Assembly: GCA_017387685.1 (NCBI GenBank)
Contig: JAFOEU010000055.1
Coordinates: 89,989 to 153,988 of the forward strand
Reading direction: 5' to 3'
DNA from: Clostridia bacterium
GTDB lineage: Bacteria > Bacillota > Clostridia > Oscillospirales > CAG-272
Length of the DNA stretch: 64,000 bases
Numbering within the stretch: position 1 is the stretch's first letter; the number at the start of each line of letters is the position of its first letter. The notes beneath the pieces were generated by a model. It saw only the letters and a program-made list of their open reading frames with translations, made no database searches and was not told the origin of the DNA. Positions 23,026-53,147 of this stretch are shown piece after piece. The position numbers and the translations under genes are program-made.

Positions 23026-23150
23026 TCGGCTTCGCCGAGTGATAATCTCGCTTCGCGAGAGTGATAATCCGCCTGCGGCGGAGTGATAATTTCCGCTGCG
23101 CGGAAAATAAAGGTGAATTTTCTCGCCTTCGGCTCAAAAATTATTAAATT
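23026..23150 (+). repeat. repeat arm: 3x AGTGATAAT + mini-hairpin units, then AATAAAGGTGAATTTT and a degenerate hairpin
   Basis: TCGGCTTCGCCGA GTGATAAT CTCGCTTCGCGAG AGTGATAAT CCGCCTGCGGCGG AGTGATAAT TTCCGCTGCGCGGAA. Confidence 0.8.
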
Positions 23151-23273: not shown

Positions 23274-24233
23274 TTAAAGGGTATTGGAAGAGCCGAGAAC
23301 GTTGACGATCTTGTGGCGGACCATCTTCTTAACTTCCTCACGAGCAACCTTGAGATACTCTCTGGGGTCGAACGCTGCGGGGTTCTCGTTGAATACGCGG
23401 CGGATACCCGCGGTCATAGCGAGACGGATGTCGGAGTCGATGTTGATCTTACAAACAGCCATCTGAGCTGCGCGGCGAAGCTGCTCCTCGGGAATGCCTA
23501 CTGCATCGGGGAGCTGACCGCCGAGGGCATTGATCTCTGCAACGTATTCCTGGGGAACGGAGGATGCGCCGTGGAGAACGATGGGGAACTCGGGAAGACG
23601 CTTGCCGATCTCTTCAAGAATGTCAAAACGGAGAGGAGGAGGAACAAGGATGCCCTTCTCATTTCTGGTGCACTGTGCGGGAGTGAACTTATATGCGCCG
23701 TGGGAGGTACCGATGGAGATAGCGAGGGAGTCAACGCCGGTGCGGGTTACGAAATCCTCAACCTCTTCGGGACGGGTGTAGGAGGAGTGCTCAGCTACAA
23801 CGTCATCCTCAACGCCTGCGAGAACGCCGAGCTCGCCCTCAACAACGCATCCGCGTGCGTGAGCGTACTCAACGACCTTCTTGGTGAGAGCGATATTGTC
23901 TTCGTAGTCGAAGTGAGAACCGTCGATCATAACGGAGGTAAAGCCGCCGTCGATGCAGGACTTGCAGATCTCGAAATCTGCGCCGTGGTCAAGGTGAAGA
24001 GCGAAATCAACGCCGCTGTCCTCAGCTGCTGCGCGAGCGAGGCCCATGAGGTATGCGTGCTTAGCATACTTACGAGCGCCTGCGGAAACCTGAAGAACTA
24101 CGGGGGACTTCTCCTCTGCAGCTGCCTCGGTGATCGCCTGGATAATTTCCATGTTGTTAATGTTGAAAGCGCCGATAGCATAGCCGCCGGCATAAGCCTT
24201 CTTGAACATTTCCTTGGTTGTTACAAGTGCCAT
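23274..24233 (-). CDS. fba: class II fructose-1,6-bisphosphate aldolase
   Basis: The N-terminus MALVTTKEMFKKAYAGGYAIGAFNINNMEIIQAI, followed by LHLDHG. The protein is 319 aa and the RBS is AAGGAG. Confidence 0.92.
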   Translation of the reverse strand: MALVTTKEMFKKAYAGGYAIGAFNINNMEIIQAITEAAAEEKSPVVLQVSAGARKYAKHAYLMGLARAAAEDSGVDFALHLDHGADFEICKSCIDGGFTSVMIDGSHFDYEDNIALTKKVVEYAHARGCVVEGELGVLAGVEDDVVAEHSSYTRPEEVEDFVTRTGVDSLAISIGTSHGAYKFTPAQCTRNEKGILVPPPLRFDILEEIGKRLPEFPIVLHGASSVPQEYVAEINALGGQLPDAVGIPEEQLRRAAQMAVCKINIDSDIRLAMTAGIRRVFNENPAAFDPREYLKVAREEVKKMVRHKIVNVLGSSNTL

Positions 24234-24487
24234 TTTAAATCTCCTTGTGAGTTAATTTATTTCCACTCTATATTATACACTTTTTTTGTTAAGAAATCAA
24301 GATTTTCGGGGAATATTGTTTGGATATTTGAGAAAAAAACAGAAAAATCCCGCAATATGACGGGATTTTGGACAGAGCGCCATCTGTAGGCGAATTTTTT
24401 TATCTTAATTATATTTAGCACTTGGTTTTGCCCAGACAAGATCGAGAGCTTCTGTTCAGGTAATATTTAATGAGTGTTACAAAAATT

Positions 24488-24757
24488 TTACTCAGAAATA
24501 GCCTCTGTCAACATTTTTACTGCAAGCGAAAAGCCTTTGATAAATGAAACTTCCGCCTCGGTTAATGAGATCTCTGTGTGACAGGTACGAAGCCGATCGA
24601 GAACTTGTTTTCCGTCCGCGTCGAGCTTGTTCCATAGAATATTATAATAAGCATCGACCTTTTTATTCAACTCTCTTATTTTCTCATCGTCAGCATCTGT
24701 TTTATCTTTTATAGGGTGGATGTCTCCGCGCCAGAGTTCGGACAGTGTCTCTTTCAT
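24488..24757 (-). CDS. hypothetical 89-aa protein (resembles a small Firmicute DUF family from memory, unverified)
   Basis: The RBS is GGAGG. The protein is helical and charged. It is preceded by leader L2. Confidence 0.55.
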   Translation of the reverse strand: MKETLSELWRGDIHPIKDKTDADDEKIRELNKKVDAYYNILWNKLDADGKQVLDRLRTCHTEISLTEAEVSFIKGFSLAVKMLTEAISE

Positions 24758-24986
24758 TTTTCCGCCTCCAATACAAAAAGTGCGCAGCCGAAGCCGCGCA
24801 CCGAAAAACGCAAACTCCGATTGCTGCTACACAAACCGAAGTTAGATCTCAACCTTTTGGGTTCACTCCAACCGCGTGGAATCTGCGTTTTTGCCGATTT
24901 CATACGAATGGAGTGTTCGCCAAAAAAGGGTATAGTTATACAACTATGCCAAAAGATAGGAGATCATTTTATTCAGTTTGTGTAGC
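24758..24986 (-). promoter_or_regulatory. structured 5' leader L2 with an intrinsic terminator (paralogue of L1)
   Basis: Promoter TTTACA-17-TATAAT (24993-25021). Closing helix UUGCUACACAAAC / GUUUGUGUAGCAG. Terminator GUGCGCGGC-UUCG-GCUGCGCAC-UUUUU (24774-24802). Confidence 0.55.
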
Positions 24987-25116
24987 AAATATATTATAGC
25001 ATATTTTGGGCACTTTGTAAACACTTAATTGAAATTTTAGCGTAGTTTATAAAGTTTAACAAAAAGAAAATTCCCGCCGAAGCGGAAATTTTCTATATGC
25101 AAAATTATAAAAAGGA

Positions 25117-25145
25117 TTGACAAAATATAAAAACCGGTGTATAAT
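25117..25145 (+). promoter_or_regulatory. promoter of the candidate antitoxin sRNA
   Basis: TTGACA (25117-25122), a 17-nt spacer, then TATAAT (25140-25145). Confidence 0.65.
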
Positions 25146-25151
25146 AATAAC

Positions 25152-25237
25152 GTAGGAGCACCGATACGGTTGCTTCCTTACATGATTATCAAAAAGATAA
25201 CCGCAGTGTTGGTAGCAGGGCGGTTATCTTTTTTTGT
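25152..25237 (+). ncRNA. candidate antisense sRNA (type I antitoxin-like)
   Basis: It runs from the promoter at 25117 to the shared hairpin AGATAACCGC...GCGGTTATCT and its T-run (25195-25236). It is complementary to the 3' end of the toxin mRNA. Its 5' module CGUAGGAGCACCGAUACGGUUGCUUCC resembles the toxin 5' UTR. Confidence 0.5.
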
Positions 25238-25313
25238 TTTTAAAACAGGTTATAATGGCAATAATAAGCATAGCGATCTTAATAAGATCGTCCCATGTAA
25301 TATATTCTTCCAT
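25224..25313 (-). CDS. 29-aa hydrophobic peptide MEEYITWDDLIKIAMLIIAIITCFKNKKR (type I toxin / holin-like toxin candidate)
   Basis: Not in the ORF track because it is under 60 aa. The RBS GGAGGGAGG is sequestered in a 9-bp hairpin (25321-25342). It has its own promoter, TTGACA-17-TATAAA, at 25422-25450. The stop codon lies inside the shared terminator stem. Confidence 0.6.
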   Translation of the reverse strand: MEEYITWDDLIKIAMLIIAIITCFKNKKR

Positions 25314-25421
25314 AATACCACCTCCCTCCATACGGAGGAAGGCAAAAAAGATTACACTTCCTCCGAATTGAGAGGAAGCAACCGCACCGATATGGTACTC
25401 CTACGGGCTTTCGCCGAGTAT

Positions 25422-25450
25422 TTTATAGCACACTTGATATTTTTTGTCAA
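25422..25450 (-). promoter_or_regulatory. promoter of the toxin mRNA
   Basis: On the minus strand: TTGACA, a 17-nt spacer, then TATAAA. Confidence 0.6.
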
Positions 25451-25514
25451 TAAAAACGTTATGATAAGTAAAAAAGAAATGAAGGAGCAAAAATCTCCCG
25501 CAAGGGGAGATTTT

Positions 25515-25738
25515 ACTCCTTCCGAACAGCCGCCGGGGCGGCGTCTGTTCGAAGCGCGGAGGGAGTTTCGCCGTCTGCGGACGGCGACTTAAGGCTCTGC
25601 CTTAAGAAACCGCAAGTTTTTGAAAAAACTTGACTAAAACTTTCCCGCTATCTTTATTTCGCCGCAGGCGAATTATCACTCTCGCGAAGCGAGATTATAA
25701 CTCTGCCGTAGGCAGATTATCACTCGCGCTCTGCGCGA
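25515..25738 (-). repeat. composite repeat (reverse orientation) ending in ATTATCACT + mini-hairpin units
   Basis: ACTCCTTCCGAA...TTCGAAGCGC..GGGAGTTTCG-CCGTCTGCGGACGG-CGACTTAAGG...AAAACTTTCCCGCT, then the array at 25657-25738. The mazF ORF ends inside the array. Confidence 0.8.
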
Positions 25739-26156
25739 CAACCCCCGCCTCCGCCACAGCCGCAGGCTGTACCTCCACTCCCTCCCCATACGCTCCTGCG
25801 GGAGGCAGCACTATACCAAAGCTCACCGCGATCGCGTTGTTGACTCTATCCATCATCTCATCGTCGAGGTGTCCCATCCGCTCGCGCAGGCGGCGTTTGT
25901 CGAGCGTTCTGATCTGCTCGAGCAGTATCACCGAATCCCTCGCCAGTCCCGCGCGCTCGGCGTATATGTCGATATGTGTGGGCAGGCGCGTTTTGCTCAT
26001 TCGCGATGTAATTGCCGCCGCTATCACGGTCGGACTGTATTTATTCCCAACGTCGTTTTGTATTATCAGCACGGGCCGAAGTCCGCCCTGCTCCGAGCCG
26101 ACGACGGGCGAAAGATCTGCATAATATATATCCCCTCTGCGTATCTGCGAGTTCAT
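25695..26156 (-). CDS. mazF: MazF/EndoA-type endoribonuclease toxin with a ~35-aa C-terminal extension
   Basis: [44 protein letters not shown]...LPTHIDI...[17 protein letters not shown] is very close to B. subtilis EndoA as I remember it. The tail [37 protein letters not shown] has no counterpart there. Confidence 0.85.
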
Positions 26157-26339
26157 TTTCTTTCTCTTCCTTTCCTTGGTCTATCACTATTCTTGACCGC
26201 ATACGCATGTTTCAAACACCGAAGAAAGCTTTCGCTCTTGGAAATTTTTCCTCATTGTCATTATATGTCGGAAGAAAAGATATTGACTTTGAGATCGGAT
26301 GGTGATATAATTATAAAAAACTCACTCGGAGGTTCTGCT

Positions 26340-27149
26340 ATGAATTACTGGACACAATCAAAGGATAATATATACGTTGCCGCTCATCGCGGATGGAGCA
26401 CCGTTTACCCCGAAAATACTCTCCTCGCATTTAAAAAGGCTATCGAGATCGGTGTTGACCAGATCGAGACCGACGTTCGCATCACCCGCGACGGCGAGCT
26501 TGTCTGCATCCACGATGCCGCCGTCGACCGCACCACAAACGGCACGGGTAAGGTCTGCGACAAGACTCTCGCCGAGCTCAAAACTCTCGACGCAGGCTCT
26601 TGGAAGGGCGCGGAATTCGCGGGCGAGCGCATCCCCACCTTCATCGAGTTTATGGAGCTCGTCAAGGATCATCCCACGATGACCCTCGATATTGAGCTTA
26701 AGGAATACCCCGTTGACGGACGTGACGAGATCGCATACGAGGTCTGCGACCGCGTGCTTAAGATCATAGATGATTACGGCTTTACCGACCGCGTGGTCAT
26801 CAACACCTTCAACGGCAAGCTCCACGAATATATGGAAGAGAAGTACGGCTCGAAATACCGCCGCCACATCTACTACCCCCTCACCCACATGGGCAAGGTC
26901 AAGCGCGACCCCTACACCTCCTCGGCGTACTGCTGCTGTATGTTCCGCGCACTTTACAGCCCGATCAATATGGCGACAAAGGAGGAATTCGACCGTATGA
27001 TCGCTCTCGGAGTCCGTCCTTGGGCACCCGCGGGAGTCAAGACTCAGGAGCACGTTGACGAGGTCATCGCCTGCGGCGGCGAGCTTATCACTTGCAATAA
27101 TCCCGATGAGATCCTTGCATTTTTGAGAAACAGAGGAAAGCATAATTAA
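26340..27149 (+). CDS. glycerophosphodiester phosphodiesterase (second copy)
   Basis: ORF 25869..27149 is trimmed to the ATG at 26340, which has a GGAGG RBS and the promoter TTGACT-17-TATAAT (about 26284-26312). Contains the motifs AAHRGWSTVYPENT and ETDVRITRDGELVCIHD. Confidence 0.85.
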   Translation: MNYWTQSKDNIYVAAHRGWSTVYPENTLLAFKKAIEIGVDQIETDVRITRDGELVCIHDAAVDRTTNGTGKVCDKTLAELKTLDAGSWKGAEFAGERIPTFIEFMELVKDHPTMTLDIELKEYPVDGRDEIAYEVCDRVLKIIDDYGFTDRVVINTFNGKLHEYMEEKYGSKYRRHIYYPLTHMGKVKRDPYTSSAYCCCMFRALYSPINMATKEEFDRMIALGVRPWAPAGVKTQEHVDEVIACGGELITCNNPDEILAFLRNRGKHN

Positions 27150-34430: not shown

Positions 34431-34645
34431 AGGGGATAATAGAGATAAGTTGCTCCCGAAGGGAGCAGTGATAATCTCGCTTCGCGAGAGTGATAATCCG
34501 CCTTTCGGCGGAGTGATAATTTGCCTGCGGCAAAGTAAAGGTAAATTTCCTCGCTTTGCTCGGAAATTATCGAATGATTTATTTACTTTCAGCGAAGCTG
34601 AAATTATCACTCTCGCGAAGCGAGATCATCACTGCCCCTCGGGCA
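34431..34645. repeat. foldback element with AGTGATAAT + mini-hairpin arms (about 4 left units, 2 right units)
   Basis: The left arm is 34431-34535. The junction hairpin AAGGTAAATTTCCTCGC-TTTG-CTCGGAAATT is at 34536-34568. The right arm TTTCAGCGAAGCTGAAATTATCACTCTCGCGAAGCGAGATCATCACT is at 34587-34645. Confidence 0.8.
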
Positions 34646-42548: not shown

Positions 42549-43058
42549 CGAGATCGGGTTAATCTCGCTTCGCTCGAGTTATAATCCGCCTTCGGCGGAG
42601 TGATAATCGCCTTGCGGCGAGTGATAATTTGCCTTCGGCAAAATGAAGGTAGATTTTCGCCGAGGCGAAAATCTTTGATTTAAATAATAAGCGATGTTAC
42701 AAATAAGCCTTCCCCGGCGGGGAAGGTGGCAGCCCTTGCGGCTGCCGGATGAGGGGATCGCCGTCTGTACCGCAGACACGACAAGCGTATATGCATTTTC
42801 ATATAATTGAAAATTTCCGCCTCGGCGGAAATTCACCTTTATTTTTCGCGCAGCGAAAATTATCATTCTCGCGAAGCGAGATTATCATTTTGCCGAAGGC
42901 AGATTATCACTCGCCGCAAGGCGATTATCACTCCGCCGAAGGCGGATTATCACTCGAGCAAAGCGAGATTATCACTCCGCCGAAGGCGGATTATCACTCG
43001 AGCGAAGCGAGATTATCACTCCGCCGAAGGCGGACCATCACTCGAGCGTCAGCGAGAT
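42549..43058. repeat. large foldback element inside the ABC transporter operon (3 left units, structured core, 9 right units)
   Basis: Left words start at 42577, 42599 and 42620, with the junction hairpin at 42645-42673. The right junction hairpin is at 42809-42841. Right words ATTATCAYT start at 42859, 42881, 42903, 42924, 42946, 42968, 42990, 43012 and 43034. Confidence 0.9.
42686..42790 (+). ncRNA. conserved structured motif, copy 1 (function and functional strand unknown)
   Basis: H1 is CCTTCCCC-GGC-GGGGAAGG (42708-42726). H2 is GGCAGCC-CTTGC-GGCTGCC (42728-42746). GGATGAGGGGATCGCC follows. H3 is GTCTG-TACCG-CAGAC (42763-42777). Confidence 0.4.
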
Positions 43059-52357: not shown

Positions 52358-52588
52358 AGTATGACCTCCTTTGAGTGTTGAGATAATTGTATCACAAAAC
52401 GGAGGAAAATGCAATAGGGTAGGGGAAATATCTCGCGAAGCGAGAGTTATAATCTCGCTTACGCTCGAGTGATGATCCGCCTTGCGGCGGAGTGATAATC
52501 TCGCTTCGCTCGAGTGATAATTTGCCTGCGGCAAAGTTAAGGTGGATTTTCGCCGAGGCGAAAATCTCGATTTTTATTAAAATAATTT

Positions 52589-52916: not shown

Positions 52917-53147
52917 GAGGAATAGAGGCACTTATTATTTAATAAATATCGAAGATTTTCGCCGAGGCGAAAATCAACCTTAACTTTGCCGCAGGCAAAT
53001 TATCACTCGAGCGAAGCGAGATTATCACTCCGCCGAAGGCGGATTATCACTCTCGCGTAAGCAAGATTATCACTCCGCCGCAAGGCGGATTATCACTCTC
53101 GCGTAAGCGAGATTATCACTCCGCCGCAAGGCGGATTATCACTAAAT

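Follow-up and report, generated by a model that had tools for sequence, protein, structure and literature searches.

At positions 25117–25450 of a 64,000-nucleotide stretch of contig JAFOEU010000055.1 from an uncultured Clostridia bacterium (hereafter the window), an initial annotation made from the letters alone had proposed a small toxin-antitoxin-like locus with convergent promoters. All of the elements it named were found at the positions it gave. Comparison with homologous loci supported this interpretation. As judged from its sequence and those of its relatives, the ~335-b stretch is a real, conserved gene pair, which encodes a 29-residue membrane peptide, referred to here as the putative toxin, and a convergent small RNA (sRNA), referred to as the putative antitoxin, with one common terminator.

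The putative toxin gene is located on the minus strand. Its promoter (25422..25450) consists of TTGACA (25450-25445), a 17-nt spacer, and TATAAA (25427-25422). The spacer ends in TG, which creates the extended -10 element TGcTATAAA at 25430-25422, and the promoter scanner overlooked this promoter solely due to the terminal A of the -10 box. The predicted mRNA is ~230 nt in length (25186..25415), with its 5′ end placed at a transcription start site 7 nt past the -10 box and its 3′ end placed after the U-run of the terminator. It would open with the GNRA hairpin GGCGAAAGCC (P0, 25406..25415), whose loop is GAAA, GCAA, or GUAA among the loci and which is likely a 5′-end stabiliser. P0 is followed by a 32-nt module, CGTAGGAGTACCATATCGGTGCGGTTGCTTCC (25374..25405), which contains an AGGAG resembling a Shine-Dalgarno (SD) sequence, an inner hairpin, and the start of the anti-SD element a (GCTTCCTCT, 25371..25379). 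Further downstream are the SD-like element b (GGAGGAAG, 25357..25364), the anti-SD element c (CCTTCCTCC, 25334..25342), which is kept in all loci, and the SD element itself (d, GGAGGGAGG, 25321..25329), located 7 nt 5′ of the ATG. The last two elements form the hairpin CCTTCCTCC-GTAT-GGAGGGAGG (25342-25321), which buries the ribosome-binding site as the initial annotation had described, and an SD-burying structure is kept in ~20 loci. The 5′ untranslated region (UTR), expected to be ~100 nt long with two hairpins, is ~102 nt long and contains four local hairpins. The 29-aa open reading frame (ORF) MEEYITWDDLIKIAMLIIAIITCFKNKKR (25224..25313) starts with the ATG at 25313 and ends with the TAA at 25226-25224, which sits within the terminator stem. 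There is another in-frame ATG upstream at 25331; because this codon falls inside the SD and is not conserved, the start was assigned to 25313. The predicted fold of the whole mRNA has an energy of -79.3 kcal/mol (z = -5.7).

On the plus strand, the promoter TTGACA-17-TATAAT (25117..25145) matches the consensus at 12/12 positions. The sRNA predicted from it is ~88-90 nt long (25152..25241) and is composed of a 5′ hairpin module (GTAGGAGCACCGATACGGTTGCTTCC, 25152..25177), a variable linker, and the terminator. Its 5′ module is a same-sense copy of the mRNA module and carries the anti-SD sequence CUUCC. The common bidirectional terminator (25191..25233) has 14-bp perfect arms (25191-25204 and 25220-25233) with a 15-nt variable top, and it is flanked by T-runs on both sides (T7GT5 on the plus strand); the U-run of the sRNA is encoded by the KNKK codons of the putative toxin. 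Since there is one common terminator, the 3′-terminal ~55 nt of the mRNA, comprising the final 5-6 codons with the stop codon and the terminator, would have a perfect complement in the sRNA. The overlap of the two RNAs is ~52-56 nt (25186/25190 to 25241), slightly longer than the ~48 nt first estimated, and does include the last toxin codons as claimed. At the sequence level, the separate antisense RNA gene expected of a type I toxin-antitoxin system is present. The predicted fold of the sRNA has an energy of -33.2 kcal/mol (z = -4.7). The similarity between the 5′ modules of the two RNAs, also pointed out in the initial annotation, takes the form of an inverted repeat (25151-25178 versus 25373-25405), and the two modules together with both promoters constitute a single long imperfect inverted repeat with arms of ~65-75 nt. 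The window contains 14 promoters with at most one mismatch from the consensus, where 0.16 would be expected, and three of the 14 fall within 24993-25450.

In order to examine the conservation of these elements, 20 distinct full homologous loci from assemblies of ruminant-gut Clostridia were collected, together with three more distant ones (L041, L042, and L043). Among ruminant-gut metagenome contigs, L002 was identical to the window and L006 was 97% identical. A scan for the 5′-module pattern, using one genome per species, found eight true loci in seven metagenome-assembled genomes (MAGs) of Clostridia/Eubacteriales; one MAG contains a tandem pair, and another contains two copies that are not linked. 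A metagenome scan with a relaxed module pattern gave three true and 12 chance matches, and looking up the proteins obtained by a peptide search with a concatenated query yielded seven further distinct loci. All of the full loci were confirmed with an nhmmer profile.

The alignment of the 20 loci showed that both sets of -35 and -10 boxes, all stems, the terminator arms, the sRNA module, and the ORF are conserved, and that the promoter spacers, the hairpin loops, the sRNA linker, and the terminator top are variable; variation is also concentrated in the toxin ORF. Both promoters, found where the initial annotation had placed them, keep their hexamers in the 20 loci: the toxin promoter retains its -35, TG, and -10 elements and the sRNA promoter its two hexamers, each with a variable spacer. 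The mRNA 5′ module is invariant in 13 loci, and the P0 hairpin is swapped entirely for a different hairpin in L023, L036/L039, L041, and L042. The common hairpin terminator with U-runs on both strands, another feature of the initial annotation, keeps its stem in all loci while its loop varies. In L041, L042, and L043, the order of the parts is retained despite a mostly changed sequence. A covariance model of the sRNA (R1) matched each locus exactly once (55-105 bits) and nothing in the rest of the window; tblastn and blastn likewise found no paralogue elsewhere in the window. The locus was not found by blastn against phages and plasmids, the class B peptide described below was not found by tblastn against plasmids, and neither the DNA pattern nor the peptide patterns gave a match in viral contigs. 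L006 (1-203) is the end of a contig of GCA_017390105.1, and the contig break is located exactly at the toxin SD. The sRNA and terminator of L006 are 100% identical to those of the window, and its ORF is strongly diverged with a 3-nt in-frame deletion. This pattern could result from recombination with a paralogue or from an assembly break at a repeat.

The ORF, which in the window encodes the hydrophobic core (Kyte-Doolittle KD(11) of 3.05) and basic tail (KNKKR) originally described, is present in the 20 full loci. The encoded peptides fall into two classes: class A, to which the window peptide belongs, and class B (MYITWEALFLFCTLVVAIIALVIDINKKR). The within-class ratios of nonsynonymous to synonymous polymorphism (pN/pS) were 0.15 and 0.28, the former being the figure for the window toxin ORF, and leaving out the final six codons, where the ORF overlaps the sRNA, did not change them. 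These values indicate purifying selection on the peptide. When 1.84 billion representatives were searched with a profile, 133 peptide clusters were recovered, many of them entered as longer 'proteins' owing to gene calls that run in frame through the 5′ UTR. Public gene calls stretched in this manner include P0002, P0004, P0005, P0008, P0012, P0016, and P0019, among others. The recurrent 'protein' motifs ..AVAS.. and ..FAFLRKEGGG.. are the conserved anti-SD and SD RNA elements.

The initial annotation had likened the peptide to 'holin-like toxins', an annotation label for some members of the TxpA family (Fozo et al., PMC2887945), and had proposed a search against Pfam as a check. The search bore out the likeness for the sister class and for wider relatives, but not for the window peptide itself. 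Class B peptides, whose loci share the UTR, terminator, and sRNA, scored 24-31 bits on Hol_Tox (PF16935), whose gathering threshold is 23.3 bits; TxpA and BsrG scored 31 and 34 bits, respectively, and the BsrG sequence used is 100% identical to that of SPbeta. Among class A variants, the closest one reached 14.1 bits, below the threshold. The profiles of the two classes aligned to each other with a probability of 94% in hhalign (E = 1.4e-7), and 58 of 89 trimmed wider relatives matched Hol_Tox (E up to 0.01). The window peptide did not match the Fst family PF13955, the only family matched by Fst itself. We therefore describe the window peptide as an apparent divergent relative of the TxpA/BsrG family, and not as a member by the Pfam test. 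With this link, the gene pair, found in uncultured Clostridia of the ruminant gut, is probably a branch of the TxpA/BsrG ("holin-like") type I toxin-antitoxin systems that has not been described before.

In the structure predictions, the SD is sequestered within the mRNA. The SD was paired in 13/13 folded mRNAs, with a probability of being unpaired of at most 0.35 and mostly below 0.1. In the window 5′ UTR, element a can pair either with b in a local hairpin or with d in a nested fold. The local-hairpin fold (a:b and c:d) has a predicted energy of -41.2 kcal/mol and the nested fold (b:c inside a:d) of -43.3 kcal/mol; the SD is closed in both. The best fold with an unpaired SD is predicted at -32.5 kcal/mol, and is less stable by 9-11 kcal/mol. 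In the nested fold, two pairs flanking GGAGGAAG and CCUUCCUC, which extend the b:c helix, change on both sides. These pairs gave 12 double-change cells versus 4.5 ± 1.5 in shuffles, with 0/500 shuffles as high, and the covariation score for the nested fold was 0.153 versus 0.112. The double-sided changes support the b:c helix. In L041, all four elements are altered together (CUUCCUUG and CAAGGAAG or CAAGGGAGG), so that both folds are still possible.

On these grounds, we consider that the locus is likely a type I toxin-antitoxin module on the chromosome, of the same kind as TxpA/BsrG (Pfam Hol_Tox). A possible course of events can be drawn by analogy with par and bsrG/SR4. The strong promoter would produce a ~230-nt mRNA with a protective 5′ hairpin, encoding a 29-aa single-helix membrane peptide. 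The primary mRNA would be stable and translationally inert, with its SD paired to anti-SD sequences of its own 5′ UTR; the five elements (AGGAG, a, b, c, and the SD) could pair in at least two SD-closed ways. Pairing with the sRNA would begin at the variable terminator loops and then zip through ~55 nt, and the duplex would be subject to RNase III-type decay and/or would keep the mRNA locked. The 5′ module of the sRNA, once tethered, could base-pair with either the SD region or the module of the mRNA, which would strengthen the translation block. On loss of the short sRNA, the mRNA would become activated, and the peptide would damage the membrane.

The step in which the sRNA module takes part deserves separate consideration. 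As the repeat is inverted, both RNAs open with the same hairpin and anti-SD module, and the two copies change together among the loci. GUAGGAG is replaced with CAGGGAC in the mRNA and with AGAGGGAC in the sRNA of L031, L032, L034, L036, and L039, and both RNAs carry GUAGAAG in L038, GGUCACUUCC in L041, AUAGAGCGUAUCAC...GCUCCCA in L043, and GCUGCUGGCA...GGCUCCCC in L042. In a similarity matrix, each diverged sRNA module had the mRNA module of the same locus as its closest counterpart. The identity also provides complementarity, since the module forms a hairpin with an anti-SD in it, and the best predicted duplex between the sRNA and the UTR was module to module, at -29 to -33 kcal/mol. The 3′ arm of the sRNA module is anti-SD-like despite the sequence change: ACCUCU in L031, CACUUCCUC in L041, and GCUCCCA in L043. 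We tentatively propose, as a possibility short of an even chance, that the antitoxin is a trans-acting copy of the cis-repressor of the toxin mRNA, born of an inverted duplication. The tethered sRNA module would then take over or reinforce the sequestration of the SD, or swap strands with the mRNA module, and the recombining terminator loops would give orthogonality between paralogues. If this is true, it is a design principle undescribed for par, bsrG/SR4, and txpA/RatA, and no description of such an RNA design was found among the papers searched.

Alternatively, gene conversion might have acted between the two arms of a promoter and leader duplicated in inverted orientation, and the identity of the modules would be a side effect of it; the sRNA would then act solely via its 3′ overlap, and its 5′ hairpin would serve as a stabiliser. 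This explanation is a serious one, to which we give roughly one chance in three. The inverted repeat takes in the promoters, as a duplication would, concerted change is the expected product of conversion, and the duplex prediction is modest relative to shuffled sequences. On the other hand, the modules stay identical while the neighbouring promoter spacers differ freely within a locus, and the 3′ arm of the sRNA module retains its anti-SD character through sequence change. In any case, gene conversion would touch one step of the mechanism and not the identity of the locus.

Several results weigh against the assignment to the type I systems and against the structures on which the mechanism is built. 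The window peptide has no Pfam or NCBIfam match at E up to 10, and hhalign of the family profile against BsrG was negative; the family link therefore rests on marginal hidden Markov model scores of short hydrophobic peptides. A cmscan of 24000-26500 against Rfam at E up to 10 returned no antitoxin family (RatA, SR4-type, par RNAII, SprF, and others were considered) and only chance-level matches. The U-run past the terminator on the mRNA side is short in several loci. In the 20-sequence alignment, the local hairpins of the 5′ UTR show no double-sided compensatory change, and the sRNA structure, whose hairpins are 96.7% paired, shows none in a fixed register. For both, the sequences are too similar for such a test, and the sRNA hairpins are supported by stability and conservation, not by covariation. 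In addition, the module-to-module duplex is only ~2.5 standard deviations better than shuffles.

The distribution of the locus among genomes bears on what kind of element it is. In the window, it is flanked by genes for mazF (25695-26156), a DUF6809 protein (24488-24757), and an aldolase. A block of ~1.1 kb (~24350-25470) that comprises the type I locus, a terminator-like hairpin (25065-25094), a promoter (24993-25021), and the DUF6809 gene is missing from the related strains L001, L003, and L004. In other species, the unit is found at the same site without the DUF6809 gene, or inverted, and it also occurs at five or more unrelated sites. The sampled genomes have only one or two copies each, and the loci are mostly chromosomal and lie between housekeeping genes, away from any mobile element that could be recognised. 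No two copies in one genome have the same terminator loop (L013a versus L013b; L008 versus L011). Toxin class and terminator type recombine independently, as seen in L013b (class A) and L021 (class B), which have a common terminator.

One reading of these data is that the locus is a gene for a small membrane protein with a physiological membrane role, whose level is tuned by a cis-antisense RNA, and that no toxin-antitoxin pair is involved. The anatomy is equally compatible with such a gene, a chromosomal position between housekeeping genes away from recognisable mobile elements would suit it, and some TxpA-like or candidate toxins, e.g., YhzE-2, were non-toxic when assayed (PMC2887945). Nevertheless, relatives of the peptide fall in the Pfam family of the proven toxins TxpA and BsrG, and a very strong promoter together with an SD that is locked by more than one route is characteristic of type I systems. 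The multiple copies, the presence/absence polymorphism, and the tandem paralogues with distinct loops are also typical of these systems. We thus regard a non-toxic membrane protein as unlikely, with perhaps one chance in six.

The repeat structure raised the further possibility that the unit is a non-autonomous mobile element like a miniature inverted-repeat transposable element (MITE), with terminal inverted repeats in which the promoters and the ORF are incidental. The imperfect inverted repeat at both ends (arms of ~65-75 nt), the occurrence in at least six genomic contexts, with either orientation seen at the site between mazF and the aldolase gene, and the presence/absence polymorphism all fit this idea. 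However, no target-site duplication was seen at the boundaries of the unit or of the ~1.1-kb block, and the candidate was rejected for want of it. The ends coincide exactly with functional promoter hexamers while the spacers are variable, the ORF is under purifying selection, and each sampled genome has just one or two copies. A mobile element of this kind is therefore very improbable. Finally, the 151-aa ORF called on the plus strand (25137..25592), which runs across the sRNA, two promoters, and the strand opposite the toxin gene, is spurious as the initial annotation suspected, and the chance that it is the real gene, with the small ORF and the RNAs as artefacts, is negligible: although a gene caller predicted it (L002, 4642-5097), it begins within a -10 box and passes through the terminator, has no Pfam family match, and is ruled out by stops in all frames in 17/19 homologous loci, being open in only two.

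Some observations on the surroundings of the type I toxin-antitoxin candidate are added here. L013 (2861-3774) contains two modules in tandem, 584 nt apart and in the same orientation, one with a class B toxin and the other with a class A toxin, and neither the terminator loop nor the linker is the same in the two. The idea that the locus is linked to the DUF6809 gene was rejected, as the two are neighbours in only four genomes and in different orders, and dependence on mazF was rejected, as related strains carry mazF without the locus. The mazF/PemK gene (25695-26156, minus strand) has no MazE-sized ORF upstream, and its called C-terminus enters a hairpin array. L038 (515-1741) lies directly past a HipA_C kinase gene, and L031 (5097-6240) lies near a serine recombinase gene. 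The hairpin arrays consist of a 22-nt unit in which a linker, GAGTGATAAT(C/T), is conserved and a GC-rich mini-hairpin of ~11 nt varies. By the linker pattern, arrays are located at 23037-23091, 34488-34521, 42576-42629, and 52444-52522 on the plus strand and at 25671-25725, 34602, 42902-43021, and 52998-53121 on the minus strand. The array linker accounts for 27 of the 29 pattern matches in the window, where 0.37 matches were expected. A weak, sub-threshold match to the Rfam family Gut-1 was found at 25646-25725. In L014 and L009, the locus is flanked by arrays of a similar make-up whose linkers are different.

If the assignment to the type I systems holds, the TxpA/BsrG toxin family reaches uncultured ruminant-gut Clostridia. 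According to a 2019 review, homologues of known type I toxins are rarely found in Clostridia (PMC6563280). Gene callers systematically mis-annotate such loci, either as a long antisense ORF or as a toxin ORF extended through the 5′ UTR. The locus would also be a compact natural RNA device, which combines a multi-state SD lock with an antitoxin bearing the same anti-SD module. Such a device could be used as an orthogonal post-transcriptional switch, for which natural loop variants exist already.

In Enterococcus faecalis, EF3263 encodes a TxpA-like toxin with a ~110-nt antisense RNA overlapping its 3′ end (PMC2887945), and a TxpA-like type I locus adjoins mazEF, with regulatory cross-talk between them (PMC6563280). 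Likened by description only, EF3263 and the window locus have in common a toxin (putative in the window) of the TxpA family, a short 3′-overlapping antisense RNA, and a neighbour of the mazF family. The window differs in that there is no mazE-sized ORF, and related strains have mazF without a type I locus.

The initial annotation had compared the locus to par (Fst RNA I/RNA II) of E. faecalis pAD1, which also has chromosomal homologues. The comparison is apt for the layout, since both have convergent promoters and one bidirectional intrinsic terminator. In par, the complementary terminator loops can begin the pairing, and a second element lies near the 5′ ends of both RNAs (PMC7472228). An intramolecular stem-loop hiding the SD and a structured 5′ end, both predicted here, are further points of likeness. 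The comparison fails for the toxin, which is not Fst-like (no PF13955 match, no PxxxG motif, and a basic instead of an acidic tail), and for the repeats. The direct repeats DRa and DRb of par give complementary sequences, whereas the inverted repeat found here gives the same sequence in both RNAs, and 5′ complementarity arises only from the module being an anti-SD-bearing hairpin.

In its peptide, the locus resembles bsrG/SR4 and txpA/RatA of Bacillus subtilis, whose toxins are likewise small and have a single helix, a [T][Y/W][E/D]xL motif at the N-terminus, and a C-terminus rich in lysine. The sister (class B) peptides pass the Hol_Tox model as TxpA and BsrG do, and a convergent antitoxin overlapping the 3′ end of the toxin mRNA is found here as in those systems. 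There are differences as well: the window peptide is under the Pfam threshold and the hhalign comparison with BsrG was negative, and SR4 has an overlap of 123 nt and its own terminator, compared with ~55 nt (the terminator and 5-6 codons) here. The bsrG/SR4 locus is without an inverted repeat joining the 5′ ends of the RNAs, and the known antitoxin RNAs differ from the sRNA by the Rfam comparison. At the RNA level, the SD of the bsrG mRNA is partly sequestered, a likeness to the lock predicted here, and SR4 acts on both decay and translation (PMC3834814). In addition, the terminator loop of bsrG has 12 nt (UGCUACCAACAC / TGCTACCAACAC) in common with the window (25217-25206, minus strand); in the bsrG mRNA of phage SPbeta, the match is at L045 612-623. 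The terminator-loop motif CU[AU]CCA[AC] is found in 17/23 loci of the family. The 12-nt match may represent kinship at the RNA level or a common kissing-loop motif.

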